Source: a virus. Taken from it: a stretch of 64,000 nt of DNA. The DNA is taken from the IMG/VR virus record IMGVR_UViG_3300037333_000056, positions 9,660-73,659 of that record. The stretch is one strand, 5' to 3'. Shown here one piece after another: positions 8,791-42,832 of this stretch. The position numbers were made by a program, and so were the translations under genes. The notes below the pieces were generated by a model that did no database searches, had not been told where the DNA came from, and worked only from the letters and a program-made list of their open reading frames with translations. Numbering within the stretch: position 1 is the stretch's first letter; each line of letters begins with the position of its first letter.

Positions 8791-9966
8791 ATGAACAAAA
8801 CTGAAATTGCAATTATAAAAAACAACATTAATGCACAACTAGAAAACAAAGAAATTGCACCATTATTTATTAGTGGTGCACCTGGAATAGCAAAAACAAC
8901 AACAATTAAGCTTATAGCAGAAGAGTTAGATATGAATGTATCATCAATTTCTGCACCAACACTTTCAAGCGAGGTGCTAACTGGATTACCAGACGACTAT
9001 TTGGAACCAAAACTTGACAAATATACTGTTGACGGGTCAAAGGCTATTGCAACAAGATGGTCAATACCAGAATTAATTGCTGACGCAAATAGACTAGCAG
9101 AGAGCAAACCAACAATTCTATTGCTAGATGATTTTCATATGATAGGTTCTCACTTACAGTCTTACTTTTTTAAGTTACTACTAGAACGTTCAATTGGAAA
9201 CTATAAGCTTTCGGATAACGTAGTAATCTTGGGAACAATGAATAGCTCGGAGGAAGCAGGATTTTCAAACATTAACTCAGCAGTACGCAATAGAATGTCT
9301 ATTCTTGAAGTAGAATTAAATTTTGAACACTGGTTCGAGAGCTATGGGAAAAGATTGCATTATCTTGTAGCGTCATATCTTAAGGCTAAGCCTAGCAAGA
9401 TAACAGAACCAGAGTCAGTAGACATAGAAGGATATTCTACAGCAAGATCATGGTCTGCACTGTCTCATGAATTAAACTATATTGATAATGACTTCATAGT
9501 TAATAATGCAGAAAAGTTATGTGCAATGCAACATTCAAAATCTGCAGCTAAATCATTTGCATCTCACGTTGCAAAGGTGAATGCAATTAACTTTGAAAAT
9601 ATAGTTTCTGTGAGAAGCATCATAAATATTAGAAACTTGTCAGACCCTATTGCATCTATTTTGTATTCATATATAGTTAACTTTATTTATACAGTTGAAG
9701 ACGGAATATATCTAATGGAACTGATTGATGAAAATATTAAAGATAGGACTTTTATTGGATTTCTAATGGGTGAACTATACACATTGTACACACAGGAAGA
9801 CAAAAATACTGATGGAATAAGACTTGTTATTGACAAGGTTCTTGGTACAGATGCAGACAAAAAACTATACACAAATACATCTGATGCAAAATTTAAAAAA
9901 GCAGAAAAATATGTATTTAAAAATAAGGACGAAGTGATGGATATTGCATCACAATATTTAATTTAA
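8791..9966 (+). CDS. MoxR-like AAA+ ATPase (N4 gp24-like)
   Basis: GAPGIAKT Walker A, LLLDD Walker B, SAVRNRM arginine finger, STARSW. Confidence 0.85.
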   Translation: MNKTEIAIIKNNINAQLENKEIAPLFISGAPGIAKTTTIKLIAEELDMNVSSISAPTLSSEVLTGLPDDYLEPKLDKYTVDGSKAIATRWSIPELIADANRLAESKPTILLLDDFHMIGSHLQSYFFKLLLERSIGNYKLSDNVVILGTMNSSEEAGFSNINSAVRNRMSILEVELNFEHWFESYGKRLHYLVASYLKAKPSKITEPESVDIEGYSTARSWSALSHELNYIDNDFIVNNAEKLCAMQHSKSAAKSFASHVAKVNAINFENIVSVRSIINIRNLSDPIASILYSYIVNFIYTVEDGIYLMELIDENIKDRTFIGFLMGELYTLYTQEDKNTDGIRLVIDKVLGTDADKKLYTNTSDAKFKKAEKYVFKNKDEVMDIASQYLI

Positions 9967-17500: not shown

Positions 17501-19603
17501 ATGGACATAGATGAAATATTAGACTCTCTTGAGACTTGTGGTAGACGCAAGACTCCTCGCATTATTTGGGAATCAGTATTGTATTATTATGGCTCAATAT
17601 TGCTAAACAAATATAGATTCAAAAAAACAGTTGGAACTGATAGGCACATAAAATATTACAGTATAGTGTTTGCAAAAAGTGGACAAGGAAAAACATTCAG
17701 CTCTGGCGTTGTTGAAAAGCTATGCAGGCTAGAGAAATATCCAGATTCAATGATGTCGTATTACATGAAGTATCTTGAATCGCTTCCTGTTGACATAGCA
17801 GAAGAGTCAAACGATGTAATAAAGTATATGCCAAAATCTGTAACAATAAGCGTAGAAGGTACAGCAGAAGGTCTATTTGACATGATTAAGTCTCAAGTAG
17901 AATCAAATTTTGGAAGTACAAATTTATTTACAGATGAATTTGGTGAAGTAATTGCATCGTCATCTGGACTACTTAGTAAGTTAAAAGAAGCATATGATGG
18001 AACAATTAAAGCTAAAGTGATACGTGGTTCTGAAGATCAATCAGTACGGAATGATATTACTAATATAACATGTAATTTTCTAGGACTAGGGTCAAGAAAA
18101 GGAGTATCAACAGAGTCTGAAAAAGAATTAAAACGTATTGCATCATCTGGAATGTATAGACGTACATTTATTATTGAAAACAAAGATTTAGTTGAAAAGA
18201 ATACAACAGAAAGCGACATATCAAAACTAGAAGTGTACTTTGAAGAAATAAACAAAAAGCATACTAACGCTCTATCAACATTATCAGCCTCAGTTGGAAC
18301 AGTATTTATAGATAGATTCATGAAATACTCAAATGACTATAATGAAAGAATTGAAACTATAGATGACGAATTAATAGCTTCTGCACATTCAGACCAATTA
18401 AATGAATTTGCACAATACAACACAGGTTCTTTAGAGATTGTAATTGATTTATCGCATATTATAGCATTTTTAGAGGATGATGACGAGCTTAAACTTAAAC
18501 ATATAGAAAAAGCATATGATTTTATGGTAAGAACAAGAGAGAGCGTAGAAGATACATTTAAATCAGTACACCCATATAAGCTTATGTATGACCTATTAAA
18601 GATGAAGTCTAACATGACTATATCTGAAATGACAGAATTTGAAGATCAGATACCAGTACAAAAAACTAAAATTCAAGATAATTTAGATTTACTGGAAGAG
18701 TTATGTTATAGACGTGATGAAATATTAGTTAAAAACAAAGGAAAAGTAACAAGATACAGTATTGAATCACTGCCTAAAACGAATCTGAAGAAACTTATAT
18801 TATCAATGTCTACAGATAACAAAGGAAAGTTTGCTATAAACTTTAAGCCAGGAGAACTTGCATGGGAAAACTTTGAAAAACTAGTGACATCAAAGAATGT
18901 AGATAGCTTCACAACTTGTCATTACGAACCTACATCAAAAGCACCAGAAGGTCACAGAGAAGCAAAAAGTGCAATAGAGGGGCAAAATATGATTGCCTTT
19001 GATATAGATGAGAATATGACGATTGAGGAGGCACAAGAAGCACTAAAAGAGTACACATACATAATGTACACAACAAAGTCGCATCAAAAAGATAAAAATG
19101 GTGAAATATGTGATAGGTTTAGGATAATACTACCTACTGAGACTATGTTCTATGTTACTCCTGAACAACACAAGCTTATGTATGAGAACATTGAAAAAGT
19201 GCTAGGCATACACTCAAACGATCCACAGACAAGAAATGTATCAAGATTATTTTATACAAATCCAGATGCAGATGTGTTTCATAACGATGGAGAACGTTTA
19301 GTAGATGTGTCATGCTGTATACCATCAACAGATAAATCTGACAAGATTATGCCTATAATGGAAAATATAGCAGAACAAGAAGAGTCTGGAGAAATGGATA
19401 GGCGTGAAGCTGGAATAATAAAATGGGTTCTAATGAACACAACTACAGGAAATAGAAACGGAAACCTATTCAGAGCAGGAATGTTCTTCAAAGACAACGG
19501 ACAAGATTTTGCATACAAATTGCAATACATAAACAATATGCTACTAGAGCCAGTTGATGATAGAGAGTTAAAAGCTATAGTATCTAGTGTAGCTAGAAAA
19601 TAA
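17501..19603 (+). CDS. DNA primase (N-terminal P-loop domain + AEP/PriCT-like primase; N4 gp43-like)
   Basis: AKSGQGKT, DEFG; FDID, YTTKSH, RFRIILP, GNRN; size and synteny match N4 primase. Confidence 0.85.
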   Translation: MDIDEILDSLETCGRRKTPRIIWESVLYYYGSILLNKYRFKKTVGTDRHIKYYSIVFAKSGQGKTFSSGVVEKLCRLEKYPDSMMSYYMKYLESLPVDIAEESNDVIKYMPKSVTISVEGTAEGLFDMIKSQVESNFGSTNLFTDEFGEVIASSSGLLSKLKEAYDGTIKAKVIRGSEDQSVRNDITNITCNFLGLGSRKGVSTESEKELKRIASSGMYRRTFIIENKDLVEKNTTESDISKLEVYFEEINKKHTNALSTLSASVGTVFIDRFMKYSNDYNERIETIDDELIASAHSDQLNEFAQYNTGSLEIVIDLSHIIAFLEDDDELKLKHIEKAYDFMVRTRESVEDTFKSVHPYKLMYDLLKMKSNMTISEMTEFEDQIPVQKTKIQDNLDLLEELCYRRDEILVKNKGKVTRYSIESLPKTNLKKLILSMSTDNKGKFAINFKPGELAWENFEKLVTSKNVDSFTTCHYEPTSKAPEGHREAKSAIEGQNMIAFDIDENMTIEEAQEALKEYTYIMYTTKSHQKDKNGEICDRFRIILPTETMFYVTPEQHKLMYENIEKVLGIHSNDPQTRNVSRLFYTNPDADVFHNDGERLVDVSCCIPSTDKSDKIMPIMENIAEQEESGEMDRREAGIIKWVLMNTTTGNRNGNLFRAGMFFKDNGQDFAYKLQYINNMLLEPVDDRELKAIVSSVARK

Positions 19604-19613
19604 AAGGAGAACT

Positions 19614-19841
19614 ATGAACAACAAAACACAAGTTGGTGGCGATCATTATGACAAGATGGTAATATCACCTATAGATTATATAGAAGCAAACGAAATGAAG
19701 TTTGCAGAAGGAAATGTTATAAAATACATTAGTAGATTCGAATCTAAAAATGGAGTAGAAGACCTCTATAAGGCGAGGCAGTACTTATCGTTTGTAATAG
19801 AAAGAGAAGAAGCAAAACTTGGAGAAAAAGAAAATGACTAG
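19614..19841 (+). CDS. DUF3310-type protein
   Basis: VGGDHY...FAEGNVIKYISR..KNGVEDL.KA..YL. Confidence 0.85.
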   Translation: MNNKTQVGGDHYDKMVISPIDYIEANEMKFAEGNVIKYISRFESKNGVEDLYKARQYLSFVIEREEAKLGEKEND

Positions 19842-20361
19842 AGAAACAAGGACATACTTAGATAAAATGGAAGATGAAAAAGATGAAAAATACAAAGAGA
19901 GACATATGAGGAAGCAAGATCCACTAGAAGAGATGATGAGATTTCAAACAGACAGGGGGTTAAATTTACAAGAGTATGATGCGATGAATGAAGCTACATC
20001 TATTTTTGAAGAAATATTAGAGTCACTTGGATTTGATGTGCCAAAAGAGAACAGAAAGAGACTAAGAGGGCACATATCGACATTCATAGAATCACTTAAT
20101 ATGTTAAATATTGCTATGCCAGCAATAGATGGAAAACCTACTGGGTCAGACAGAGTTGATCCACATGCAGATATGATTGAACTTAATATAGGTGCAATAA
20201 TGAAGCTAGGACACAATGTTCCAGAATCTCTACTAGAAATGGCTAGAGAAATTAACGGACGCAAAGGTGAAATTGTAAACGGAAAGTTTGAAAAATATAA
20301 ACCTAATCATCCAAAATATGAAGAGCCATACAAGGCAAATTACAACAACACAAAATTATAA
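19834..20361 (+). CDS. MazG-like nucleotide pyrophosphohydrolase (putative)
   Basis: EEILE...VDPHAD...GKIVNGKFEK-like pattern typical of phage MazG/PRA-PH proteins. Confidence 0.55.
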   Translation: MTRETRTYLDKMEDEKDEKYKERHMRKQDPLEEMMRFQTDRGLNLQEYDAMNEATSIFEEILESLGFDVPKENRKRLRGHISTFIESLNMLNIAMPAIDGKPTGSDRVDPHADMIELNIGAIMKLGHNVPESLLEMAREINGRKGEIVNGKFEKYKPNHPKYEEPYKANYNNTKL

Positions 20362-20374
20362 AAAAGGACAAGGT

Positions 20375-20668
20375 ATGATGCTTATTGAGAGATTAACAGA
20401 AGAATTAAAGAAAAACAACGGTAAGATACCTAAGTCGTTCGTGGAAAGTATCTTGAACCATAAGGATACAAAAGTGTCACATGCTAAGTTGACACCGAAC
20501 ACGAGAGTGTGCGTTATTACAACAGTGTATGGGCATGACTTAGTTGGCTATGCACAGGTTCTAGATGCGTCAAATGACGTTGAACTAACTGGGCAATCAA
20601 TTGCATACAAAAATGCTGCTGATCAACTATGGTCAGTACTTGGCTCAGTTGCAAAAATATTACAGTAA
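20375..20668 (+). CDS. N4 gp49/Sf6 gp66-family protein (Acb4-like sponge candidate)
   Basis: TRVCVIT..YGHDLVGYAQVLD....ELTGQSIAYKNAADQLWSVLG. Confidence 0.65.
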   Translation: MMLIERLTEELKKNNGKIPKSFVESILNHKDTKVSHAKLTPNTRVCVITTVYGHDLVGYAQVLDASNDVELTGQSIAYKNAADQLWSVLGSVAKILQ

Positions 20669-20685
20669 ATAATTAAGGAGAAAAC

Positions 20686-20736
20686 ATGGCATGCAAAACC
20701 AAAAAGAAAAAAAGAACAACAAAGAAGAAAAAGTAA
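20686..20736 (+). CDS. 16-aa poly-lysine peptide
   Basis: AAGGAG RBS then MACKTKKKKRTTKKKK*. Confidence 0.5.
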   Translation: MACKTKKKKRTTKKKK

Positions 20737-20749
20737 AGAAAGGAAAAGT

Positions 20750-20983
20750 ATGAAAAAAATTGAAATCGGAGACACTGTCTATTTTATGAATCAAGACGAC
20801 TTCATGATTGTAAACGATATTATTGTCGAGATAACACAAACAGCAGACGGATACGAGTATTTTACTGCTAACGGAAATAGATTTGTTAATCCAGAACTAT
20901 TTTACACATCAAAAGAGTCATTTGCAAAAGCATGGCTAGATGCTAATGGATTAGCTATTGAAGCTACATTAACGAACATTTAA
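20750..20983 (+). CDS. Hypothetical protein
   Basis: AAGGA RBS; IGDTVYF start. Confidence 0.75.
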   Translation: MKKIEIGDTVYFMNQDDFMIVNDIIVEITQTADGYEYFTANGNRFVNPELFYTSKESFAKAWLDANGLAIEATLTNI

Positions 20984-21006
20984 AATTATAACACAAAGGA
21001 AACACA

Positions 21007-21186
21007 ATGGAAGCATTAACAGAAATTAAAGAGCAATTAGTAGACACATTAGAACTTATTGAGAAGCAAGAAGCAGGTTCTACATGGAACAAAGCAAACT
21101 CTGCAAGAATAAGAGTAGCACTTGGCAACATCAAACACGCTGTAACTCCAACTAGAAAAGAACTTCTAGCTGAAGATAAAAAGTAG
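21007..21186 (+). CDS. Hc1/histone-H1-like small protein (59 aa, missing from ORF track)
   Basis: AAAGGA RBS; WNKANSARIRVALGNIKHAVTPTRKELLAEDKK. Confidence 0.65.
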   Translation: MEALTEIKEQLVDTLELIEKQEAGSTWNKANSARIRVALGNIKHAVTPTRKELLAEDKK

Positions 21187-31300: not shown

Positions 31301-34300
31301 CATGCTTTCCTGTCATAAAAGGTTTTATTCCATTGTCTTTATTGACATAATCTGTTATATGAAGAGGCGTTCCATCAGGTTGCCTAGAATACACTGTTCC
31401 ATTTGCCTCAACAAGAACAGTTCTGTATTCCATATCATCATTCTTAAAGTGCCCGATAACAGTTACTTTAGCATTATCACCTTCCTTGCCAGGAATTTCT
31501 GGGCCATAACTATACTCGCCCTCAGGATTAAAATTAAATGTTATATGCTTTCCATCACTAAGCTTGAACTGACTAAATAATTTAATCTTGTCTCCATTTA
31601 TAAACAGTGCATTAAATTTATTGCTGATCTTTTTGCGGATATTTACACCTTTACCTGCGTTGTTAAATCTTACTCCGGATGCCATAACTCCATGTATTGC
31701 AAGCTTAAGTATGTCTGCATCTACAATTTCTTTTGAACTAATCTCGTTGAATTGCTTATTCGTTACTTTTGATATTCTACCTTTTATATTGTTCCATAGT
31801 TTGATAACATTATTTTTAAGAGTTGTAGATGTAATGTTTCCACTCTGCTTATTTATATGTTTTATTGCAGCATATGTCAATTTTGCCGTAGAGTCCTCTG
31901 CTACCATTACTGCTTCAAATTCAGCAGTCCTATGCAGTTCGTCTTCTATCTTAAGCACGTCCTGTATACGTTTAGGAAGCTTATTTATTACTTTTTCGTC
32001 AAGTCTTGAAAGTATCTCTAGTGTCTTTTTTATATATTTTGCATTTTGATCAGATTTTCCACTCGCAGAATATAAGTACCCAACAGTAGAATAGTGAACT
32101 ATCTCGTGTGCTATTGCAGTTTCAATATCTAGGCCAGAACCAGACAGTGATTCTTTTGTACCTATAGTAATTCCATGTACGCTAGGGTCATACGAGAATT
32201 CAGAACCAGATGTGAGAGACTTAACATTTTCACTTTTTATGAATTCAGATATTATTTGATTATCTTTATACTTATTTATGTCAAGTGTTTTGTTCTCTGC
32301 TCTTTTTACTAATTCTCCTATAATATTAGATAGGACTTCAACATCGTGCGATGCATCATGTGCCTTACCATCTTTTTTTACACCTAATAGACTTTCTACT
32401 GCAGATTGCGTCCTATCAAACTTTGTTCTGTTGTTACCTTTGTTGTCTACAAATTCAACGTCATCTTCATTTGAGTCTCTTAGCTCGCTAACAGCAAGCA
32501 ATTTTGCATCAAATATTTCAAATTTGTTTGATAGAAGTTCATCTACGCCAGAATATGATGACAATATATCGAAGTCAGACTTTATACCATTGTATGCAAT
32601 TATTGGAGTCTTTCCTCCATCAACGCTTAATGATTCAAGAGCGTCTCGTATTGATTTTGCAACACTATCCTCGTTGTATTCTTTTGCTGAGTCAGGTATG
32701 TCTCGCTTATATTCACTGTACTCTTTCATATCAAGTATAGCATCGAAGTCATTGCTTGACGGCTTATATTCGAACGTTACAGGATCTCCATCTTGTACAA
32801 TTGTGCCATTTTCATATTTATATTTTCTTGCGTACAGCTGTAGTAGTTCTTTTGATTTTCCGCCTTTAGCATGGTCATATCGTCTTTCGTCGCTAGGGTC
32901 AAATGTATTTTCAATATCTATTACAACAACAGGTTCTCCACTAGAGACAATATCAATTATCTTGTTAGCGTGATCTGTTACAAACTCTGATATTTTATCT
33001 CCATCTATAAATGGTCTATCTTTATGTCCAGTAGGAGTTATTGCATATGTATCAAGATATTCACTGCTTATTTCGTCTTTCCATGACGATGTATCTGCAT
33101 CATTGTTGTTGCCGTTGTTATTATTATCATTTTCTGTAACGTCTATATAAGTGTCTTTTTTATCTGATTCTATATCATTATTATCCAACCTATAGTTTTC
33201 TTTGCCTGCAATATTGTTTCCATTAAACCCAAACAATAAGTGGTTCTCAGACATACCAGCATTATATACATACTTCTTGATGAACTTTCTTTTTTTATCT
33301 ATTTTTTCACTGACAGAATCAAGATTGTTTGTGTTGTCTATAAATATTGACTTCTTTATTTGCTCTGCAGAAATAATATTTTCATCATGTCCAACATCTG
33401 CTATCTGATCCTGAAATGAATCATATAGCAGAACCAGTTGCTCGGATATATCATATTCATAGTTTATTTCAGATGTAAGTTTTTGATACTCAACATCATA
33501 TATGTCACCATACACTGGTACACTATGTATAGCATCATATATTCCAGCTGTACCATTCTGAAGTACATTTAGCAGGTCATCACGATCATTCTCAAGTGAC
33601 CTGATGTACTCATTGTCAGATCCATCAATCCTGTTTAGTTCACGTACCTCTAGGTTTATATCAAGTATCTTTTGCTTAATTATGCGTCTTGTGTTTCTGT
33701 GTGCTAACTTTTCTAGTCCTGAATCTATGCTATGTATACCAGATACTGCTGGAATTAATCCATTTGATAGCTCCTTCTTTATAGGAACATATCCAGCTCT
33801 GTCAGATTCTACAAGAACCTGTCGCTTAGAAGTTATTGGCATTCCGTACTGCTTAATCATTTTCATGTACCATGCTCTATACTCAGGAGTACCTTTTGCA
33901 GTAATCTTTAAGTTATCTTCACTATGTGTTTTGCCATATAAGATATGGTCAGGATTACGTTCTACTCCATTGTCATCAGTATTACTTTCTGTTATTATCA
34001 TCCATGTTCCTGCAGGAATTATCATCCTAGGGAACCTGTCGGCAGCATCATGATAGTGTTTACTTGCGTCAGAATAGAATGTGTCTATATTTCTGTAATA
34101 TGAGCTTAGATCATTCTTGTATGCAGTAGTAGCTTGACCAAGCGTGCTATCAAGTAGCCCAGCTAGCCTATCAACTAACCCAACACCTTCCTGTGCAAAG
34201 TATGCTTGAATTGCAAGATAAACTCCAGGTATAGCAGCAAAATCTAATTCAGTATGCTTAGATAGATCTAAAACATTTTCGTACTTATGAAGTTCTGCAG

Positions 34301-36782
34301 ATTTATACAGATCTTCGTCAACTTCTTTTATTGATGAAACAAGTAAGTTTAGTGCTGAAACCCTATCGTTAGTGCTTCCACTTGTTGCGGCAGTATCTAA
34401 GTACTCAAATACATCATTAGTCATGTCTCTTGATGCAGACGCTCTTGTCCCAGCAGCCCCTGCTTGATAGTTTTTAACCATAGTAACTGGCTTAAGCATG
34501 TCGCGTATAGATCCAAATATTCCAAGACTTGTAAACTTAGACATTACAGTAAAAGTTGATTCATCGGTATCTTCTTCTTGAGAGTTTGCATGTTCATCGT
34601 CTACTGCTTTTCTTAGTATTGCATATGCATCTGCAAGATATTCATCTTCACTAAGATCTTTTCCAGAATCCTTTGCAATCTTCATTTTGATAAGTAAATC
34701 TTTTATCATCTCATCAGCCACATCATTAGAGCCTAGTGCTTGATATAATGTCAATATTACACCAGAAGCAGTTGCATCAGACTTGGTTCTGTAATGAGTG
34801 GTTATTTTGTCAGATCCTGATTCTTTTGCACTTCTAATATCAGATATTGCAGATAAAGAGTCTATTGCTGACCAAACGCTCTTGGTTTTGAATTTAAACT
34901 TAGTTGCTTTTCCGGAAACCATTATTTCATTTTTAGCAAGTATCTTCATTAGCGTTGACATTGCTGACACTCTTTGATCACTAGTTAACTCTTTATTCTG
35001 AGTCTTTCTAAATAGCTTAACAAGATTATCTAATGGCTTATTTATTCCTTCGTTTTCTATAGCTTGATACCGCTTTATCTCTTCTTGTATTTCACTTGAT
35101 CCTATGAATTCGTCGACTATAGAACCGAACACCTTGTAATATGCAGATGTTCCAACTTTAAAGCTTGACTCTCCGCCAGAAACTATTGACCTAGACATTT
35201 TGTCTGATATTTCATTAAGTACATTTGATGTTGGCATTGAACGACTATTTCTTACTATCTTATGCTTCTTTACATATTTTTTCCCATCTTTGAACCTGTC
35301 GAATGTAATAAGTAGATTTGCTAGTGGAGTCTCTTTAGAGATTGACATGCCGACCTCATTATCTACTCTTTCCTGCGTCAACGCACCATCATATGAACCA
35401 AAAATCTTATTCTTAAGTGCTACATCTTTTATTCCAATAGATTCATACACTTTATTTAGAGAGACCTTATCATCTATTCCAGAATCATTATTAAACACAT
35501 TGCTCATACTTGATAAAAGGTCGTTGAATATTGGGTTAATCATATTTTCTGTTTTTGAAAGACCAACCTTGTCTTCAGTAAATATTTTTGCATACTCATC
35601 TGGAACTCCAAGATTTTGCTTTCCATCATTGCCAGATCCTTGCTCTACAGTAAATAATTGATTTTTTAATTCAGTAGGAACTCTATATTTTTCATTTGGA
35701 GGGATTGTATCGTCTGCGGCATCAAGTTCTTCTTTTTTTATTAGCTTCTCAATATAGCTATTGTTTGTTGGTGCTTCCATATTTTGAGTTGTTGTCATCT
35801 TATTTATTGCTTGTGATGCGTTATACGTTGCCTGCAAAACTGGATATGCAGTTATTTTTTTAGTATTAAAAGAACCAGTGTTTAGAATCTCTGCAACAGT
35901 ATTCTTGTCTTCAGGTTTTGTTGATTTTCCTAATAGCTTTGTTGTGTTTATATATATAGCATCTGCACCGTCAATAATTGGTTCTACACTTATATTGCCT
36001 CCAAACATATCTTTAAAGTTATTATTTAGTGTTTGTCCATTCTCTATTACTTTAACTAACCCATTACCGTATTCATCTACTGCAACCTCTGTTAGTGCAT
36101 TAACTGCAGATTTTCCTATTGATATATACGCTTCATTAGCAGATATTGTGTCTGTCTCAAACTTGATTCCAGATGCTATTGCTATCTGCCTACCTATTGC
36201 TCCATACAGATTAATTGAACTAAGAATTGTTGTTCCATACTCAGATTTTAGAGTATCTTTTACAGACAACTTATCTTCTGGAGACAAGTTGAGATTCTGT
36301 AATATATGATTTTCTGCTTTTCCAGCATTTGCTATTGCATTAAATGCTATACCTACAGCACGCATAGTTGAACCTATAGTTCTTATCTCCTTATTTAGGA
36401 GCTCTTCATTTTCATCTTTTGATAACTTATCATTATACTTATATCCTACTGGATCTACTCCATCTATATCTAGTATTCCGTCGAATAATATATTTGCTGA
36501 GGTGTTTCCTATCTTTGTTCTTGACTTGTTTATTGCACTATGTATAGCAGATTTTATTTTTGGAATCTTTACTTCGCTATCAAGCTTAGACATAATCTCT
36601 TCTTTAATTGAAGCATCAATATTTGACATCATGTATACATAGTCTTCTGCTTTAATAGACTGAATATTCCAAGCAATAGGAGTGCTGCTTCCTGAACTAT
36701 TATCCAATACTGCAGATTTCATTCTTATTTTGCCAGTCTTAGTATTTAATAATATCTTTGCATACTCTTTACATTTTCTCAT
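28380..36782 (-). CDS. Virion-encapsidated single-subunit RNA polymerase (N4 vRNAP-like) with extra domains
   Basis: 2800 aa; RNSR, motif A KSDATASG, motif B RDMLKPVTMVKNY, IHSID, motif C GIYDAI; plus DEDDh, HEIVH and 2x HIT motifs. Confidence 0.9.
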   Translation of the reverse strand: MRKCKEYAKILLNTKTGKIRMKSAVLDNSSGSSTPIAWNIQSIKAEDYVYMMSNIDASIKEEIMSKLDSEVKIPKIKSAIHSAINKSRTKIGNTSANILFDGILDIDGVDPVGYKYNDKLSKDENEELLNKEIRTIGSTMRAVGIAFNAIANAGKAENHILQNLNLSPEDKLSVKDTLKSEYGTTILSSINLYGAIGRQIAIASGIKFETDTISANEAYISIGKSAVNALTEVAVDEYGNGLVKVIENGQTLNNNFKDMFGGNISVEPIIDGADAIYINTTKLLGKSTKPEDKNTVAEILNTGSFNTKKITAYPVLQATYNASQAINKMTTTQNMEAPTNNSYIEKLIKKEELDAADDTIPPNEKYRVPTELKNQLFTVEQGSGNDGKQNLGVPDEYAKIFTEDKVGLSKTENMINPIFNDLLSSMSNVFNNDSGIDDKVSLNKVYESIGIKDVALKNKIFGSYDGALTQERVDNEVGMSISKETPLANLLITFDRFKDGKKYVKKHKIVRNSRSMPTSNVLNEISDKMSRSIVSGGESSFKVGTSAYYKVFGSIVDEFIGSSEIQEEIKRYQAIENEGINKPLDNLVKLFRKTQNKELTSDQRVSAMSTLMKILAKNEIMVSGKATKFKFKTKSVWSAIDSLSAISDIRSAKESGSDKITTHYRTKSDATASGVILTLYQALGSNDVADEMIKDLLIKMKIAKDSGKDLSEDEYLADAYAILRKAVDDEHANSQEEDTDESTFTVMSKFTSLGIFGSIRDMLKPVTMVKNYQAGAAGTRASASRDMTNDVFEYLDTAATSGSTNDRVSALNLLVSSIKEVDEDLYKSAELHKYENVLDLSKHTELDFAAIPGVYLAIQAYFAQEGVGLVDRLAGLLDSTLGQATTAYKNDLSSYYRNIDTFYSDASKHYHDAADRFPRMIIPAGTWMIITESNTDDNGVERNPDHILYGKTHSEDNLKITAKGTPEYRAWYMKMIKQYGMPITSKRQVLVESDRAGYVPIKKELSNGLIPAVSGIHSIDSGLEKLAHRNTRRIIKQKILDINLEVRELNRIDGSDNEYIRSLENDRDDLLNVLQNGTAGIYDAIHSVPVYGDIYDVEYQKLTSEINYEYDISEQLVLLYDSFQDQIADVGHDENIISAEQIKKSIFIDNTNNLDSVSEKIDKKRKFIKKYVYNAGMSENHLLFGFNGNNIAGKENYRLDNNDIESDKKDTYIDVTENDNNNNGNNNDADTSSWKDEISSEYLDTYAITPTGHKDRPFIDGDKISEFVTDHANKIIDIVSSGEPVVVIDIENTFDPSDERRYDHAKGGKSKELLQLYARKYKYENGTIVQDGDPVTFEYKPSSNDFDAILDMKEYSEYKRDIPDSAKEYNEDSVAKSIRDALESLSVDGGKTPIIAYNGIKSDFDILSSYSGVDELLSNKFEIFDAKLLAVSELRDSNEDDVEFVDNKGNNRTKFDRTQSAVESLLGVKKDGKAHDASHDVEVLSNIIGELVKRAENKTLDINKYKDNQIISEFIKSENVKSLTSGSEFSYDPSVHGITIGTKESLSGSGLDIETAIAHEIVHYSTVGYLYSASGKSDQNAKYIKKTLEILSRLDEKVINKLPKRIQDVLKIEDELHRTAEFEAVMVAEDSTAKLTYAAIKHINKQSGNITSTTLKNNVIKLWNNIKGRISKVTNKQFNEISSKEIVDADILKLAIHGVMASGVRFNNAGKGVNIRKKISNKFNALFINGDKIKLFSQFKLSDGKHITFNFNPEGEYSYGPEIPGKEGDNAKVTVIGHFKNDDMEYRTVLVEANGTVYSRQPDGTPLHITDYVNKDNGIKPFMTGKHARENYNKITHLDGKEYTLDATVDVVYGTYNEKYDKSSSSSGKAKKQDKNKKEDDITNTVHAGSSTDSQPKDTKQKAEESLKETMSYVYKGKEHKVDIDSILDKSLFMLNKSISNGLGDIYTSTIGPKTESGVAKAHEFMYQNFDVYKMQFDRAEDYWGSADWLQSLKGYLDTWGRLGTFDSLNSAITLTMTSAQKRKQFEDNKISKLNKLMEHMSDRDKDNIYYTFARSPIFYLIGSNEIMSNLINKRAGDITIAIDEYIKEYESKIGNTSKIHRIRAMAQIYAGKRTPSRTTDAYNIAQMHPQDSAERLNLGALLALYSIKENTRINKEGNTVREYENAFKLLRKNKKFASELMTLSAGMFGSHNKMYATTKDKMLGKENLLYESFTVPKEFAIVTKKDLNHNDYTKESGWRILQKPTSKDYGIVYRDRVEQTSQEGAGTSVHYLNQDIIVPKDKELKGMNNVYSIKTLKGSFQKIVLTPDQLDLLGLNKNPADAIVRSYGRSIEIHNTQAARDELLSQTMTKYLKTSSSIDKLEEDLADIDTKDIPLFLSLPDSSTAKEVLETHKLIGDRYKVVSNVTTVGGINEHLHLVRKDFSDIAIGFNDPVLFSNNDSLKKAAFAIRQAVKLTKIHWVITNIPKIFGDTTSNVAILLAYGVPVQEIPRLIKESIVDMKSLEKLRLKQLELEIKKYSGEDVDNKLKRVKESIKTHPMAIMLNTGMMQSISVEVMNKDESVISGLQNDIESLLNKFLKDSNGKNNGLAKAIKALSQSGHQSMNVETLLQFAGKSAKNFKALQSFGDNLIESGDRIEHNKKTGDMAKYISEFIASPDSAMVRFGSFAVQSIDIVSRKILLDTLIAQGKSEHDAIKITLESFVDYKINMPKEVKALSDYGVLLFPSFWMRIQKVILATVKANPAGVAFGTSIQQFIDIHPDTIIDSNIIVKMFGKHFDGNGLDFINAPLLSSDAFFPQIVG

Positions 36783-36793
36783 TATATTCCTTA

Positions 36794-39700
36794 TTATCTT
36801 TTAATACAGAAGGTAAATTCTTCTTCAATCAATGCCTGTTTTTCACTATCTACAAGCTCTTCATCTGATATTATATCGTACAACTCTTCAATCTCGTATT
36901 CATTTTCAATCTTCTCATTGTGTGATAAATATACTATTTCATCTTTGTTCTTTTTTATATTTTTAATCTCTTCTTTTAACTCACTCTTCCTTCTTATCTG
37001 TTCTATGTCTGCGTTTCCAGAGTTTATTTCCTGTTCGATTCCAAGCAACTCACTTTCAATTTTGTATTGCTTCTTATCTAGCTTTTTCATCTCTTTATCT
37101 ATCTGTTTTGAGCTCTTGATTAGTTTAGTGTTTCTATATATCTTTTTTTGCTTACTTGTTAGCTCAGTGTCTGTTGCATTAACGCCTCTAGCATTAATTA
37201 CTCTTCTAAATATCTCAGCCTCTTTGCTTGTTATATTCTTTGCATCTTCTGCTACATTTATAAGATTATGAACAAATTCAACCTCTTGCTTTGATCTGAT
37301 ACTGCTCTTTTTTGCATACTTCAGTATAGTATTATATGCATCAATATTATGGTTGTCCATAAGATTTGCATCTATGATTTCATCGTTTTTTGCAGATTTT
37401 AGTCCAGTTGCAGCTTCGCCTATTATTGCAACAAGTGTTTTGTTATATTCTTTTGGACTAGAGTTTTCATCTGAGTCAAAAACTATATTTAGACTGTTTA
37501 TCGCAGACTTTAGGTTCTCAGCTTTCTTTTTGTCTAAACCAGAGCTGTTGTATAGTTTTTCGGCTACATCCTGCAGGAGACGCATTCCTTCATCTTGAGA
37601 TGTTATTGCAAGGCTATATGAACGCATTATTCCCTGTATTTGGTCAATAACTTCGTTTGAATACTTATATGTACTCTTTTTTGCAACCTCTGATGATATA
37701 TTTTTAAGAACGTCTCTCGTGTGTATATTCTTTGATGAGTTTATCCTAGTAGCAAAGTCTTCACCATCCTGCTCCTCAACTTTTGCTATTTCTATTCTAG
37801 CAGCATTTCTTGTTTTAAATACTGATTCTATTGCAGCTTTCATTGCCTTACTTGCAGACGGATCATTAAAGGCTTCCTTTAGCGACTCATCTGAATATGT
37901 TCTTATATTCTTTTCTATCTTGCTTTTTGTCCCAAATGATCTCAATTTATGCATGAATGTTTTAGGGTCACTTTTGTACTCGTTTACATCTATCTTGTCA
38001 TTACTAAACTCATTTACAGCAGAACCTGACGACAATGCTTCTTGTCTCTTTATCTTGTGTCCATCTAACCTATCAAGCCTTGCTTGAATTGTTTTTGCTA
38101 GAGTATCAGCTTTATTGTTTATAGCGTTTACTTGTTCATGAATAATACCATTGTCTTTATCAAATACACTCTTTTCTACTGTGTATAGTGGACTATACTT
38201 GCTGTTTCCTACAGTATGTAATCTATCCATTGAATATATATTTGTTCCAGGAAGAAATATTTCTCTACTAGTGCCACTGGTTCTTGTATTGTTGTCAATT
38301 TTATGCATATCTCTTTTTTGCTCTGGAGTAGCATTAAGATACAGTTCCTTCATGTATGCCTGACGCTCATCTGTATCCATAAGACTTATTTTCTTCATAA
38401 CTTCTTCATCAACAGCACCAGAATCACCAAGAATTTTGTCTTTAACACCTAAAGCGTTAAGAGTTTCAGTGGTTATAAAACTTGATTTTGAAAACTCTTC
38501 AGCAGCTTTTTCGTTATACTCATCATTATTGTCGAACACTGACAGCATAGATTGCTCTCTTATTGCATTACCTAAGTCTCTTACTTCAGGTATTGCTGAG
38601 TCTGTTAGCTCTGATATGTCTTTTGCTTTTTTTGTTGCTTCTACTGCGTCTTTCATTATATGCCAGTTATCTTGCATAACTTCAATATCTTTAGACTCAT
38701 TTGCAGCATAAAAATCAAAATCAGTTTGATCCATATTGTTAACCATCGTATCGATGTTTGCTTTAGCTCTTTTTTCTGCAATTTTTGTATTAACAGATTT
38801 TGCAAAACTTTTAGCAAAAGACAAAGAGCTTGAAGGAGCTTTTGGCACCATATGCATCAATCCACCTGCTCCAGCACCAGCTATTGCAGCTTGAAACGCT
38901 TGGCTTCTATTCTTTTCGTCACGCAGAATGTCTTCGACATCCTTTTCGCTTATTCCATATTGTTGTCCAATTATCTCTCCCCATGTCTGAGTATACTCTT
39001 GAAATCCTTCCTCAGTCATACTTGCTAATGCAGAACCAGTTTTATTCAATAGCTTGTTTGTAAAAAATGGCTTTAGAGTATCTGGCATTTTGTTATATGA
39101 CGACTTTAATATTGACGTTGTTGGCTTTGTTGCTTTTGACAACTTACTTATTCCAGATACGTGATCAAAGGATAGCTTATCAAGAAGTGTAAAAGGCATC
39201 TCGAATGCATACAGTGCTGTAGCTTCTCCAACACTAACTGATGGATCTTCTCCTGCTTCAAGCTTTGCCTTTATTCTCTCATCAAGTATTCTGTTTGTGT
39301 TTACTAAGTTTATTGTCTCGACTCCAGCACCTTTAGCAAGCAAGTTTAAGCCTTTAAGCATCTGCTCAGAGTCTTTGTATTTATTGTATACGCTCAACTC
39401 TCTAGGCTTAAACGATGCCTTTCCTACATCAACTATTTTCTTTATATCAGATGCTGATGCCCCAGCAGCCTTTGCTTTATTTACGTTTGCAACCAATCTT
39501 AGTGCTCCAGCTGTACCTGATACTTCACTTACGCCTATAGACATACCAGCCATGTACGGTAACGACTCAGCTACGAATGACGGTGCAGACTGTGCAACAC
39601 TCCATAGTCCAGATGCTATATCGCCACGATTAAACGCAGCTTCAGCTTCTACAACTTTACTTTGAGCGTAATGCCTATCATATCCAACAAATTTATCTGC

Positions 39701-40759
39701 CCATTCTTGCTGATAATCATTAAGAAGCGTGTTGTCATCACCAGGAAGCAGGTCAAGCAATGCGTCTGCTGTTCCAGTTACGAGACCAAGTGCACCAGCC
39801 TGAAACGCGTCAACGAAGTTACTATCCCATGGACGACTCCTACTGTGCTGATACATAAATTTTGATCGTTCAAGGTTTCTAGCATAATCTTCACTTGTTC
39901 CAGTATCTAATCCTAGAAGATCTTGATCATATAGTTCTGTTTTCCCTGCACCAAAATTTATACCTGATGCTTCATCTCTAGACTTTAGCCCATCAGGAGT
40001 CATAACCTTGTCAGATGACATTACTCTATGGTCAAGGTTCTCGTCAAGTGCATGCCATTTGTTTTCCCAATCGAGTGCTCCAGCAAATTTCTTTTCACCA
40101 ATAAGTTCCCATCCGTCTTGAGTATATTGGTCTTTGTATCTTCCGTATGCACCATCATGTGCATATCCAAGCTTATAGATATATTTTGTGCTTCCATCGT
40201 CATTATATCCATCAAATTTCCTAAGGTTATATACTCCACCTTCAGCATCAGGATTATCTTCTGCATTATTATATTGATCTATTAAGTCTTGCCTTGTTAA
40301 CCCTTTAGCTCCAATAAAGTCTTTATTCTGCATATTATACTTGCGACCATTTCGTTCAGCCTGAAATCCATCTCTATGGGTTATCCAGTCCCCTTGACCA
40401 TAATCGAGTACATTTTCTGTTGCTTCTAAGAACCAGTCTACGGCGTGTATCCCAGCATTAGCAACTTCTTTTGCTCTGAGCATTGAGTCGCTGTCATTAA
40501 TGAGTGTTCCATCTTGCTCATACTTGAGATCAGCTTTTCTATATATTGACTTACGCTTTAACTCTGCAGCTCTAGCAAGCTTTGTTCTCCTGTCAAATTG
40601 TGCATCTAATTGTTCTATGTCATATTCAGATTGAGCTATTGCTTGCTGTAAATATGGGTCAATTGAAACATCAGGCTCTTTGTCGTACGGAGTATACTCT
40701 CCAGTAGTATCATCTATATATCCTTGTGGTTCATCGTCGTATATGTAGTCTTCTGCCAT
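36794..40759 (-). CDS. Large internal virion/ejection protein, probable detached vRNAP N-terminal region
   Basis: 1321 aa; EEGFQEYTQ and AAIAGAGAGG segments typical of injected proteins; 11 nt upstream of vRNAP. Confidence 0.65.
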   Translation of the reverse strand: MAEDYIYDDEPQGYIDDTTGEYTPYDKEPDVSIDPYLQQAIAQSEYDIEQLDAQFDRRTKLARAAELKRKSIYRKADLKYEQDGTLINDSDSMLRAKEVANAGIHAVDWFLEATENVLDYGQGDWITHRDGFQAERNGRKYNMQNKDFIGAKGLTRQDLIDQYNNAEDNPDAEGGVYNLRKFDGYNDDGSTKYIYKLGYAHDGAYGRYKDQYTQDGWELIGEKKFAGALDWENKWHALDENLDHRVMSSDKVMTPDGLKSRDEASGINFGAGKTELYDQDLLGLDTGTSEDYARNLERSKFMYQHSRSRPWDSNFVDAFQAGALGLVTGTADALLDLLPGDDNTLLNDYQQEWADKFVGYDRHYAQSKVVEAEAAFNRGDIASGLWSVAQSAPSFVAESLPYMAGMSIGVSEVSGTAGALRLVANVNKAKAAGASASDIKKIVDVGKASFKPRELSVYNKYKDSEQMLKGLNLLAKGAGVETINLVNTNRILDERIKAKLEAGEDPSVSVGEATALYAFEMPFTLLDKLSFDHVSGISKLSKATKPTTSILKSSYNKMPDTLKPFFTNKLLNKTGSALASMTEEGFQEYTQTWGEIIGQQYGISEKDVEDILRDEKNRSQAFQAAIAGAGAGGLMHMVPKAPSSSLSFAKSFAKSVNTKIAEKRAKANIDTMVNNMDQTDFDFYAANESKDIEVMQDNWHIMKDAVEATKKAKDISELTDSAIPEVRDLGNAIREQSMLSVFDNNDEYNEKAAEEFSKSSFITTETLNALGVKDKILGDSGAVDEEVMKKISLMDTDERQAYMKELYLNATPEQKRDMHKIDNNTRTSGTSREIFLPGTNIYSMDRLHTVGNSKYSPLYTVEKSVFDKDNGIIHEQVNAINNKADTLAKTIQARLDRLDGHKIKRQEALSSGSAVNEFSNDKIDVNEYKSDPKTFMHKLRSFGTKSKIEKNIRTYSDESLKEAFNDPSASKAMKAAIESVFKTRNAARIEIAKVEEQDGEDFATRINSSKNIHTRDVLKNISSEVAKKSTYKYSNEVIDQIQGIMRSYSLAITSQDEGMRLLQDVAEKLYNSSGLDKKKAENLKSAINSLNIVFDSDENSSPKEYNKTLVAIIGEAATGLKSAKNDEIIDANLMDNHNIDAYNTILKYAKKSSIRSKQEVEFVHNLINVAEDAKNITSKEAEIFRRVINARGVNATDTELTSKQKKIYRNTKLIKSSKQIDKEMKKLDKKQYKIESELLGIEQEINSGNADIEQIRRKSELKEEIKNIKKNKDEIVYLSHNEKIENEYEIEELYDIISDEELVDSEKQALIEEEFTFCIKR

Positions 40760-40877: not shown

Positions 40878-42317
40878 TTATGGCTTATATGTTCCAGCCT
40901 CTTTCTCTGCTTTTATTCTATCTGCTTTTGTTTTCTTGTATTGTTCTCTTTTTATCTTTAGCTCAAGTAGTTGTTTTTCTGTAGGATTTTTTAATCCCTC
41001 AAGCTCGATGACTCTTTTATTTAACGCAATCTCTTTTTCTTTTTTTATTGCAAGGTTATTTTCAAACACCTTGTGCCCAACGTATGTCTTTTCTTTTCTT
41101 GCAGCTTCTCGTCTTTTTTTTGCTTCTGCTGCCTTTACATTTGCTCTTGCTACGTGCCCAGCCATATCAGAGTTCTTTTGCTCTCTCAGTACTTTAACCT
41201 TAGCTAGCTTTTGCTGCTGAGTTAAGCCTGGGTCAGATATGACTCCATTAATTCTATCTGTATACACATTATACAGTTTGTTCTCATACTGTCTTGTGCT
41301 CATTGTTGCAGGAACAGTTTCAGTCTTTTTTGCATATACTGGAGTAGAATATTTTTTAGCAATAGCTGCTTGCTTCCCATAGAATGCATCATACTCTTTA
41401 CGCGTTTTGTCGTTTTCTTCTTTTTGCTTTTGCAATGCAAGTATACGTTTTCTTGTAGCAGAATACAGATCTGAATTATCCTTTTTTTCTATCCTATGCT
41501 TATCTTCCCATTCAGCTTTTTCGAGATCCGTTGAGAACATTCCAGGTTTATCCCACCATCTGTTTATCGATGGCATAATTTTAGACTCAGCGTATCCTAT
41601 AGCTCCACCAGCAAGACCACCGGCAATACCACCAGTGGCAGTACCGGCAAGTGCACCAGCAGACATTCTGCTAGCTGTATATGGATCAGGTAATATTGAA
41701 TCTGCTGTAGTCTTTCTGTTAGTGTCTGTTCCAAAAAACATTGACTTTTGTTCAAGAAACTTAAGCTCTTCTACTTTTCTTTTTGCAGGATCTTTTATTG
41801 AATTTATTTTGTTCCAGCCTGAAAGTATATCTTTTTGTACGCCAGTTATCTTTTTATCAGAAGCAACATCTTTCGGTGCATATGTTCCATTTTTTGTTAA
41901 TATGCTTAATTCACTATCTATTGAGTCAGTGTCGTACTCTTCTCCAGTAATATTATCTTTATCATCAACAGTTCTAGTAACGTCAGTAATATCACTAACA
42001 GGCTTAGATATGTTTGCTAACGCATCAAGTAATGCAGCATTTTTGCTTTCCTTCTCTTTTCTATTGGCACTTGCTCTAGCTTCTTCTCTAACATTTGCAT
42101 CTTTTCTCATTTGAAGTTCATCTAGTTTTAATTGATAGTTTCTATCAAGTTCTGCTTGTCTTGCTGCCTGCTCAGCGTCATATCTATCGTTCTTTAGCTT
42201 CTCATCCTCATGCCTCTTTAATGCTCCTCCAAGATTTTGCAGCGACTGATAGAAGCCATTTCCCAAGTTATAACTTATTGCATCTGGAAGTTTTACTACT
42301 CTATCAAATCCAGGCAT
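40878..42317 (-). CDS. Internal virion protein (N4 gp51-like position)
   Basis: Cys-free, coiled-coil and Gly/Ala-rich segment; synteny. Confidence 0.55.
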   Translation of the reverse strand: MPGFDRVVKLPDAISYNLGNGFYQSLQNLGGALKRHEDEKLKNDRYDAEQAARQAELDRNYQLKLDELQMRKDANVREEARASANRKEKESKNAALLDALANISKPVSDITDVTRTVDDKDNITGEEYDTDSIDSELSILTKNGTYAPKDVASDKKITGVQKDILSGWNKINSIKDPAKRKVEELKFLEQKSMFFGTDTNRKTTADSILPDPYTASRMSAGALAGTATGGIAGGLAGGAIGYAESKIMPSINRWWDKPGMFSTDLEKAEWEDKHRIEKKDNSDLYSATRKRILALQKQKEENDKTRKEYDAFYGKQAAIAKKYSTPVYAKKTETVPATMSTRQYENKLYNVYTDRINGVISDPGLTQQQKLAKVKVLREQKNSDMAGHVARANVKAAEAKKRREAARKEKTYVGHKVFENNLAIKKEKEIALNKRVIELEGLKNPTEKQLLELKIKREQYKKTKADRIKAEKEAGTYKP

Positions 42318-42832
42318 TATACGTAATCCGCTCTATTTTTTTCTCTAACGTCTTTACCAGTTCCTTTATATTCACTTTTAGCTAGATTTTTTTTTGCCGT
42401 ATTGTTGTCATTATATGCTTTTGCTTGATTATTAAAAGATGTCTTTTGTAGTTTAAAATTTTTATCTGCAATATCTTTTTGCATATACATTCCGTATATA
42501 TTTGCACCAGCATTCAATAGTTCTCCACCACTTAGCCCTCCTAGACCACCATTTGATCCAATATCTATAGGCTTATCCATCCCAGCAGAGAATGTTTGTT
42601 TCACTCCATTTCCTGATAAATCTCCTGTGACTCCAGTAATTCCATTAGGCTTAAATGCTCCAGTATCAAATGAAGACCCAACAGTTCCATCCTTTAGTGT
42701 TCCTGTGTACTCTGTCTTGCCAAGACTATCGCCTCCCAATCCAGATATCGAATTACTGATTCCAGCACCAATGTTTCCTATGCCTGAGAATATATCGCTA
42801 CCAATATTTGATAACCCATCAAAAAAGCCCAT
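42317..42832 (-). CDS. Small Gly-rich virion protein (N4 gp52-like)
   Basis: Gly-rich N-terminus, GANIYGMYMQ..A...F.LQK..FN pattern; synteny. Confidence 0.6.
   Translation of the reverse strand: MGFFDGLSNIGSDIFSGIGNIGAGISNSISGLGGDSLGKTEYTGTLKDGTVGSSFDTGAFKPNGITGVTGDLSGNGVKQTFSAGMDKPIDIGSNGGLGGLSGGELLNAGANIYGMYMQKDIADKNFKLQKTSFNNQAKAYNDNNTAKKNLAKSEYKGTGKDVREKNRADYV

Follow-up and report, generated by a model that had tools for sequence, protein, structure and literature searches.

The window analysed here comprises 64,000 nucleotides (nt) of the virus record IMGVR_UViG_3300037333_000056 (positions 9,660–73,659), which is most of a 73.7-kb record. Its minus strand carries two adjacent genes, for proteins of 1321 and 2800 amino acids (aa), which are predicted to encode the two pieces of a virion RNA polymerase (vRNAP) of the phage N4 type. 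The upstream gene would supply the N-terminal domain (NTD), and the downstream gene the RNA polymerase (RNAP) together with accessory domains and the C-terminal domain (CTD). Each protein contains one cysteine, and the two cysteines are located at the ends that face each other across the gene junction (Table 1).

Table 1. Features of the split vRNAP locus, in positions of the window
Feature	Position	Strand	Evidence
NTD piece of the split vRNAP (predicted), 1321 aa	36794–40759	minus	Open reading frame (ORF) and translation, Cys count; sole Cys is Cys1318
Cys1318 codon TGT, proposed upstream half of the clasp	36806–36808	minus	Sequence, Cys count
Intergenic spacer, 11 nt	36783–36793	minus	Direct sequence reading; Shine-Dalgarno (SD) AAGGA at 36788–36792
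Cys4 codon TGT, proposed downstream half of the clasp	36771–36773	minus	Sequence, Cys count
RNAP, accessory domains and CTD piece, 2800 aa	28380–36782	minus	Sole Cys is Cys4; phrog_2206, hhalign, fold
Single-subunit RNAP catalytic motifs	33522–34781	minus	Invariant catalytic residues in alignments A3 and A4
Motif A, SDATASGV	34758–34781	minus	Residues 668–675 of the RNAP protein
Motif B, RDMLKPVTMVKNYQAG	34458–34505	minus	Residues 760–775 of the RNAP protein
Motif C, IYDAIHS	33522–33542	minus	Residues 1081–1087 of the RNAP protein
479-aa Cys-free protein at the N4 gp51 position (putative ejection protein)	40878–42317	minus	Position only
171-aa Cys-free protein at the N4 gp52 position (putative ejection protein)	42317–42832	minus	Position only

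The first-pass annotation of the window had reported a sole cysteine in each protein at the facing ends, and a script count gave the same result (Cys1318 of 1321 residues and Cys4 of 2800). Residue Cys1318 is the fourth from the end of the upstream protein, in the sequence FTFCIKR followed by the stop codon, and Cys4 lies in the N-terminal sequence MRKCK. The background Cys frequency in the 34 other ORFs of the window with at least 150 aa was 1.02%, at which 13.5 and 28.6 cysteines were expected in the 1321-aa and 2800-aa proteins, respectively. The Poisson probability of one cysteine or fewer was 2e-5 for the former and 1e-11 for the latter. Given one cysteine per protein, the probability that both lie within four residues of the facing ends was 4e-6.

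The two ORFs occupy different reading frames, and each has its own stop codon, SD sequence and ATG. The stop codon TAA of the 1321-aa ORF is located at 36794–36796, and the AAGGA sequence precedes the ATG of the 2800-aa ORF (36780–36782) by 5 nt. The 11-nt gap with a proper ribosome binding site, as annotated earlier, was thus read directly in the spacer. Purine-rich tracts resembling AGGA or GGAG were also located ahead of most of the downstream genes in the relatives. The annotation had also considered a start at a later methionine (MKSAV), which would leave Cys4 untranslated. In the closest relatives, L001 and L002, no in-frame start occurred after the cysteine before codon 91, and the protein sequence upstream of codon 91 was conserved. 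Together with the invariant Cys4 column, this excludes the methionine of MKSAV as the start.

Identity of the two pieces

The 2800-aa protein was matched to N4-like polymerases. Its C-terminus (residues 2652–2777) matched phrog_2206, 'virion RNA polymerase', with an E-value of 5e-23, and tblastn gave matches to vRNAPs of the Schitoviridae. Homology of the CTD to N4 gp50 was detected by hhalign using alignment A4 against gp50 residues 1001–3500 (probability 93%, E-value 3e-7), and the match of the profile reached the end of the gp50 CTD. Residues D669, K764, Y772, and D1083 of the catalytic motifs were invariant in alignments A3 and A4, and motif A was found about 670 residues into the protein, where the first-pass annotation had placed it. 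An AF2 model of residues 440–1200, of moderate confidence (predicted local distance difference test score, pLDDT, of 62.9), gave the N4 mini-vRNAP (PDB code 3c2p) as the top Foldseek match, with a probability of 0.99 and an E-value of 1.2e-3. When the same model was compared by VIA-align, the top 34 rows were all single-subunit RNAPs, with Z values of 7.5–10.7. The N4 structure 2po4 was aligned over 488 residues with a Z value of 9.7 and a root-mean-square deviation of 6.1. A Pfam scan of the 1321-aa and 2800-aa proteins gave no match above the cut-off, and a PDB sequence search with both proteins gave no useful match.

Between the RNAP core and the CTD, residues 1285–1564 of the RNAP protein (32091–32930, minus strand) contain motifs resembling those of DEDDh exonucleases, namely VVVIDIE (residues 1285–1291), AYNGIKSDFD (residues 1396–1405), and HDASHD (residues 1475–1480). 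The sequence AHEIVHY follows at residues 1558–1564, and residues H1559, E1560, and H1563 of this HExxH motif were invariant in the 13 sequences of alignment A3. For the exonuclease-like region, Pfam gave no match in the window protein and a weak RNase_T match (E-value 1.7e-4) in the relative P0029.

The 1321-aa protein had no family match in Pfam or PHROGs, and its identity as the NTD is drawn from a fused relative and from gene order. The conserved core of the protein comprises residues 130–700. A homolog of this core is located at the N-terminus of L008, a fused and Cys-free vRNAP encoded by one ORF longer than 3074 aa, the later parts of which matched the RNAP domain (residues 1328–1967) and the CTD (residues 2478–3450) of N4 gp50 by BLAST. 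The core homolog also starts the proteins of other relatives in which NTD and RNAP are joined in one chain. Because the core precedes RNAP and CTD in L008, and with the gene order, the window pair is best described as an N4-type vRNAP that appears to be cut at the linker between NTD and RNAP. The first-pass annotation had taken the upstream gene to be the N-terminal region of N4 vRNAP that is missing from the RNAP protein. That assignment stands with respect to the fused relative and gene order, whereas sequence similarity to the N4 NTD was undetectable (probability 0.2% by hhalign for alignment A1 against gp50 residues 1–1000).

The most conserved block of the NTD protein lies at residues 174–200 (40160–40240, minus strand), where GGVYNLRKFDGY and KYIYKLGYA are followed by the invariant residues R207, E232, and N233. 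The block resembles the GIY-YIG or T5orf172 pattern, and the Pfam scan gave no match for it.

The window pair therefore shares several properties with N4 gp50 and with gp71 of Pseudomonas phage DEV, both from the Schitoviridae, as these are described in two reports (PMC13434306, PMC11445570): the RNAP fold, the catalytic motifs, and a homologous CTD. It also shares with them a gene position after two genes for Cys-free ejection proteins, a strong depletion of cysteine, and an arrangement of domains on flexible linkers. It differs from N4 gp50, a single chain of 3500 aa in which a count gave no cysteine, as the first-pass annotation had stated, in that the chain is cut between NTD and RNAP and each piece carries one cysteine at the cut.

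Terminal cysteines in split and fused relatives

Homologs of the upstream protein, homologs of the downstream protein, and the related loci were analysed by script. The terminal Cys pair was present in 17 of 17 readable distinct gene pairs, one of which (L020) is counted only when an in-frame TGA is read through. In these pairs, a single cysteine was located 0–5 residues from the upstream C-terminus and a single cysteine at residue 3–7 of the downstream protein. The pairs were of two types, which differed in the site of the split. Two cultured Alteromonas phages were included, vB_AmeP_PT11-V19 (type A) and vB_AmaP_AD45-P1 (type B).

In type A, to which the window belongs, the NTD is separated from RNAP and CTD. 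Twelve distinct type A pairs had the terminal Cys pair, with identities of 23–47% to the window protein. In PT11-V19, a 1000-aa protein contains Cys997 and a 2082-aa protein annotated as 'RNA polymerase' contains Cys6. The column of Cys1318 was invariant or near-invariant in alignments A1 and A2 of the upstream homologs, and the cysteine was also kept in 14 other upstream homologs, for which only the protein sequence is available. The column of Cys4 was invariant in alignments A3 and A4. Among the 18 RNAP-protein homologs returned by the search, one of which duplicates a type A locus, 15 had exactly one cysteine, at residue 3–7, and the three without cysteine start inside the protein.

In type B (L003, L004, L005, L020, L023, and P0030–P0037), the NTD homolog starts a protein of 2500–3800 aa that also contains the RNAP, and the CTD is encoded by the following gene. 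The long proteins had one cysteine, within the last 1–3 residues, and eight of eight ended in Cys. The CTD proteins start with MASC, MAVC, MTC, or MGC. In AD45-P1, Cys2493 of 2495 residues and Cys4 of 1409 residues were the only cysteines of the two proteins. The protein P0033 (3491 aa) is an apparent exception because it contains five additional, non-terminal cysteines. All five are located inside an intein (residues 230–503) and would thus be spliced out. The intein, which was matched by Pfam Intein_splicing at residues 277–517 with an E-value of 4e-5, below the Pfam cut-off, interrupts the NTD core, which continues from residue 504.

In the type A and type B relatives examined, the unsplit linker never carried a cysteine. 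In addition, no cysteine was found in six of six fused vRNAPs (N4, pVco-5, LUZ7, VCO139, phCDa, and L008), which have lengths of 3022–3500 aa, and a Cys frequency of 0.00075% has been reported for gp71 homologs of 191 viruses (PMC11445570). The comparison of split with fused homologs that the first-pass annotation had suggested therefore showed co-conservation of both terminal cysteines with the split. The Cys pair tracks whichever linker is split. In the N4 structure paper of 2026, the flexible linkers of gp50 are given as residues 907–1006 and 2102–2123 (PMC13434306), and the two split sites, NTD|RNAP and RNAP|CTD, match these two linkers. In a phylogeny built on the NTD core, the two types were interleaved, with the starred branches forcing at least five changes, and a single type B clade was rejected by the approximately unbiased (AU) test (p = 1.6e-62). 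These results indicate that the split site changed repeatedly, and that the Cys pair was gained or moved along with it each time.

A type B relative of 3782 aa, P0036, has an AAA_30/AAA_19 domain, as in RecD-like helicases, at residues 1498–1685, inside the chain. The giant ejected chains of its clade seem to gain extra enzyme domains.

A probable head-to-tail disulfide and its alternatives

In an unrelated podophage, the terminal-Cys signature of the split vRNAPs corresponds to an actual disulfide. The cryo-electron microscopy (cryo-EM) structure of the pre-ejectosome of cyanopodophage A4 (Anabaena phage A-4L; PNAS 2025) contains a disulfide bond between gp27 Cys1715 and gp26 Cys5 in the virion (PMC12002296). 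In the A-4L genome, the genes of gp27 (1717 aa) and gp26 (1114 aa) are adjacent, and Cys1715 and Cys5 are the only cysteines of the two proteins. The arrangement is that of the window: the genes lie side by side on the same strand, the sole upstream cysteine is close to the C-terminus (Cys1318 of 1321 residues in the window, Cys1715 of 1717 in phage A4), and the sole downstream cysteine is close to the N-terminus (Cys4 in the window, residue 3–7 in the relatives, Cys5 in phage A4). The phage A4 proteins are giant packaged ejection proteins. Phage A4 is a 42-kb podophage of the Saffermanviridae that is unrelated to the window virus, gp27 and gp26 are not RNA polymerases, and no sequence match was found between the phage A4 proteins and those of the window.

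A split N4-like vRNAP had been described earlier from the Alteromonas phages vB_AmaP_AD45-P1 to P4, whose RNAP consists of two separate polypeptides (Garcia-Heredia et al. 2013, PMC3821669). In that study, resequencing confirmed the stop codon, and gels showed the two polypeptides at 270 and 175 kDa. As in the window, each AD45 piece has one cysteine at the junction; the split is at the other linker, between RNAP and CTD. The authors counted two cysteines in ORF127, from which they inferred that its product is not injected, and they did not comment on the location of the cysteines at the chain ends. In the AD45-P1 record (KF005317, 15624–27348), the split vRNAP is annotated only as a 'potential frameshift' misc_feature. 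The terminal-Cys rule for split vRNAPs was not found stated in any paper in a literature search. The N4 structure paper mentions neither cysteine nor disulfide, and split vRNAP genes were not found in the passages searched (PMC13434306). The phage A4 disulfide is the sole known case. It was described as a stabilising contact, and neither as taking the place of a peptide bond where an ejection protein is split nor as a general rule.

From the comparative pattern and the analogy with phage A4, a head-to-tail disulfide probably re-creates one linear chain, so that the split polymerase can be threaded through the tail, as the first-pass annotation had proposed. In the virion, an inter-chain disulfide would link Cys1318 in the NTD piece to Cys4 in the RNAP and CTD piece. 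As both cysteines are located within three residues of the facing ends, the result would be in effect one linear chain of ~4100 residues. In the N4 structure paper, gp50 is modelled as beads on a string that is threaded through a channel of ~35 Å, with an NTD that inserts into the inner membrane and a CTD that autoinhibits the polymerase (PMC13434306). The joined chain would be pulled unfolded through the tail channel of ~35 Å, NTD first, as for fused gp50. The link would have to be covalent, since a non-covalent interface between the halves would not survive unfolding. If the link were absent, the leading NTD, which engages gp51 in N4, would leave the polymerase behind. The bond may form once the particle meets oxidising conditions, after its release from the reducing cell. 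In the least supported step of this scheme, the reducing cytoplasm of the next host may cut the bond and free the polymerase from the membrane-anchored NTD. The extreme terminal position of the cysteines in every lineage and in phage A4 is the placement that threading through a narrow channel calls for; a cross-link in the middle of a chain would produce a branched or looped object.

Several points weigh against the threading interpretation. The evidence is wholly comparative or by analogy, and a disulfide has been observed in no split-vRNAP phage. The gel conditions for the AD45 polypeptides were not stated (PMC3821669). The bond cannot form during assembly, because the host cytoplasm is reducing, and a non-covalent contact would have to be assumed to bring the two ends together. 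A complex prediction with the C-terminal 132 residues of the NTD piece and the N-terminal 230 residues of the RNAP piece (alignments A2 and A4) gave a score of 0.02, which argues neither for nor against binding. The authors of the phage A4 structure read the Cys1715–Cys5 bond as stabilising the pre-ejectosome and not as providing chain continuity (PMC12002296). Two loci also appear as exceptions to the pattern. In L020, the upstream ORF (3070 aa, NTD and RNAP) is terminated by a TGA that precedes the conserved Cys-bearing end by 16 codons. Reading through this TGA, in the region 19120–19190 of L020, adds 16 residues that end in VNCKP before the stop codon, as in the relative P0035. In-frame TGA is absent from the other ORFs of the locus, and TGA is thus not generally reassigned there; the stop could stem from an error in the sequence, from a recently acquired nonsense mutation, or from programmed read-through. 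In L004, the NTD and RNAP protein ends in Cys, and a search of the record, which is 72% complete, did not find the partner CTD gene. Its gene is immediately followed by a 1.6-kb insertion (19412–21037) that carries two antisense ORFs of 258 and 66 aa. The next sense ORF, which starts with MPC 1.6 kb downstream, was considered as the partner and was not counted, as it has a P-loop motif and appeared helicase-like by eye.

The disulfide might be real and serve assembly instead, by co-packaging the piece that has no CTD signal or by stabilising the pre-ejectosome, with no role in chain continuity. The phage A4 authors describe Cys1715–Cys5 as stabilising a 'mortise-and-tenon' pre-ejectosome (PMC12002296). 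Furthermore, the N4 CTD is required for encapsidation, as stated in the AD45 paper with reference to Kazmierczak 2002 (PMC3821669), so that a piece without CTD needs a packaging partner. However, packaging occurs in the reducing cytoplasm, before the bond would exist. A clasp that merely stabilised the complex could sit anywhere on the interface, whereas both cysteines were within six residues of the chain ends in every lineage examined, at two split sites and in phage A4, a placement demanded by a linear topology. A purely assembling role is therefore regarded as unlikely, although it is the most serious of the alternatives. It is less probable still that the terminal cysteines are unpaired with each other and instead bind another virion protein, bridge a metal ion, link homodimers, or are modified. 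Both cysteines come and go with the split and are absent from the fused forms, no further conserved Cys or His is located nearby as a metal ligand, and neither a lipobox nor a signal peptide was found. A homodimer linked through one end could enter the channel only as a two-chain hairpin. A lipoprotein or CaaX-type modification was rejected in addition because the stubs that flank the cysteines are too short and variable and no signal peptide is present.

A further alternative is translational bypass. In phage T4 gene 60, matched codons flank a short untranslated gap, with a stop codon near the take-off site, and the ribosome bypasses the gap. By analogy, take-off at the upstream Cys codon and landing on the downstream Cys codon would yield one fused polypeptide. 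The Cys codons are separated by 9–60 nt at 17 of 18 junctions (1635 nt at L004), a stop codon directly follows the upstream Cys at 7 of 18, and the same tRNA reads both codons. However, the Cys codons were identical at 10 of 18 junctions, compared with ~10.7 expected by chance, and each downstream gene has a start codon of its own, in most cases behind a purine-rich SD-like tract. Bypassing also fails to explain the invariable use of a Cys codon in proteins that are otherwise free of cysteine. Two AD45 polypeptides were seen on gels (PMC3821669), and the phage A4 cryo-EM model contains two chains joined by a disulfide (PMC12002296). The window thus differs from gene 60 in that its downstream gene has its own ribosome binding site and start, the codon is always Cys, and two polypeptides are known in a relative; a bypass is very improbable. 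The probability is close to nil that the cysteines arose by chance, are neutral remnants in proteins poor in Cys, or result from a miscalled start, in view of the joint positional probability in the window alone, of the recurrence of the pattern in 17 pairs at two split sites, and of the lack of an alternative start before codon 91 in L001 and L002. Joining of the pieces by a split intein was rejected, since an N-intein of ~100 aa and a C-intein of ~35 aa would be expected and only 0–5 residues follow the upstream Cys and 2–6 precede the downstream Cys.

The sequence signature, its co-conservation, and its tracking of the split site are shown by the comparison, and the threading of a disulfide-joined chain remains the preferred interpretation of them. 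A wider form of this interpretation, held with slightly less than even confidence, is that terminal cysteines form a general code of podophages. Giant ejection proteins would be kept free of cysteine except at chain joins, and a C-terminal cysteine followed by an N-terminal cysteine would mark one disulfide-linked thread. The bond could replace a peptide bond at any flexible linker and would have been gained and relocated repeatedly in the course of gene splitting and fusion. It would be cut in the cytoplasm, so that the pieces, such as the polymerase and its membrane anchor or its autoinhibitory CTD, part only after delivery.

Neighbouring genes and implications for ejection

The two genes located before the NTD gene encode proteins of 479 and 171 aa, neither of which had a PHROG match. 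A Cys-free protein occupied the gp51-like position in all of the related loci listed. The absence of cysteine in the 479-aa and 171-aa proteins is shared with N4 gp51 and gp52 and with the same-position genes of the related loci, and both are putative ejection proteins by position.

For N4-like phages, the split vRNAPs are natural experiments on the passage of a 3500-residue polymerase through a 35 Å tail channel, in which the string is interrupted at either of two linkers and seems to be re-tied by a breakable bond. As a reducing agent would break the clasp and one Cys-to-Ser substitution would remove it, cultured Alteromonas phages would allow direct tests of the ejection order, of whether a continuous chain is needed, and of the fate of the NTD and CTD after entry. 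The clasp rule would correct the published inference that the Cys-containing AD45 polymerase is not injected, and it would offer a way to tell from sequence alone which virion proteins travel together. It would also add one more reason for the avoidance of cysteine in ejection proteins, in that a stray cysteine would cross-link the thread.

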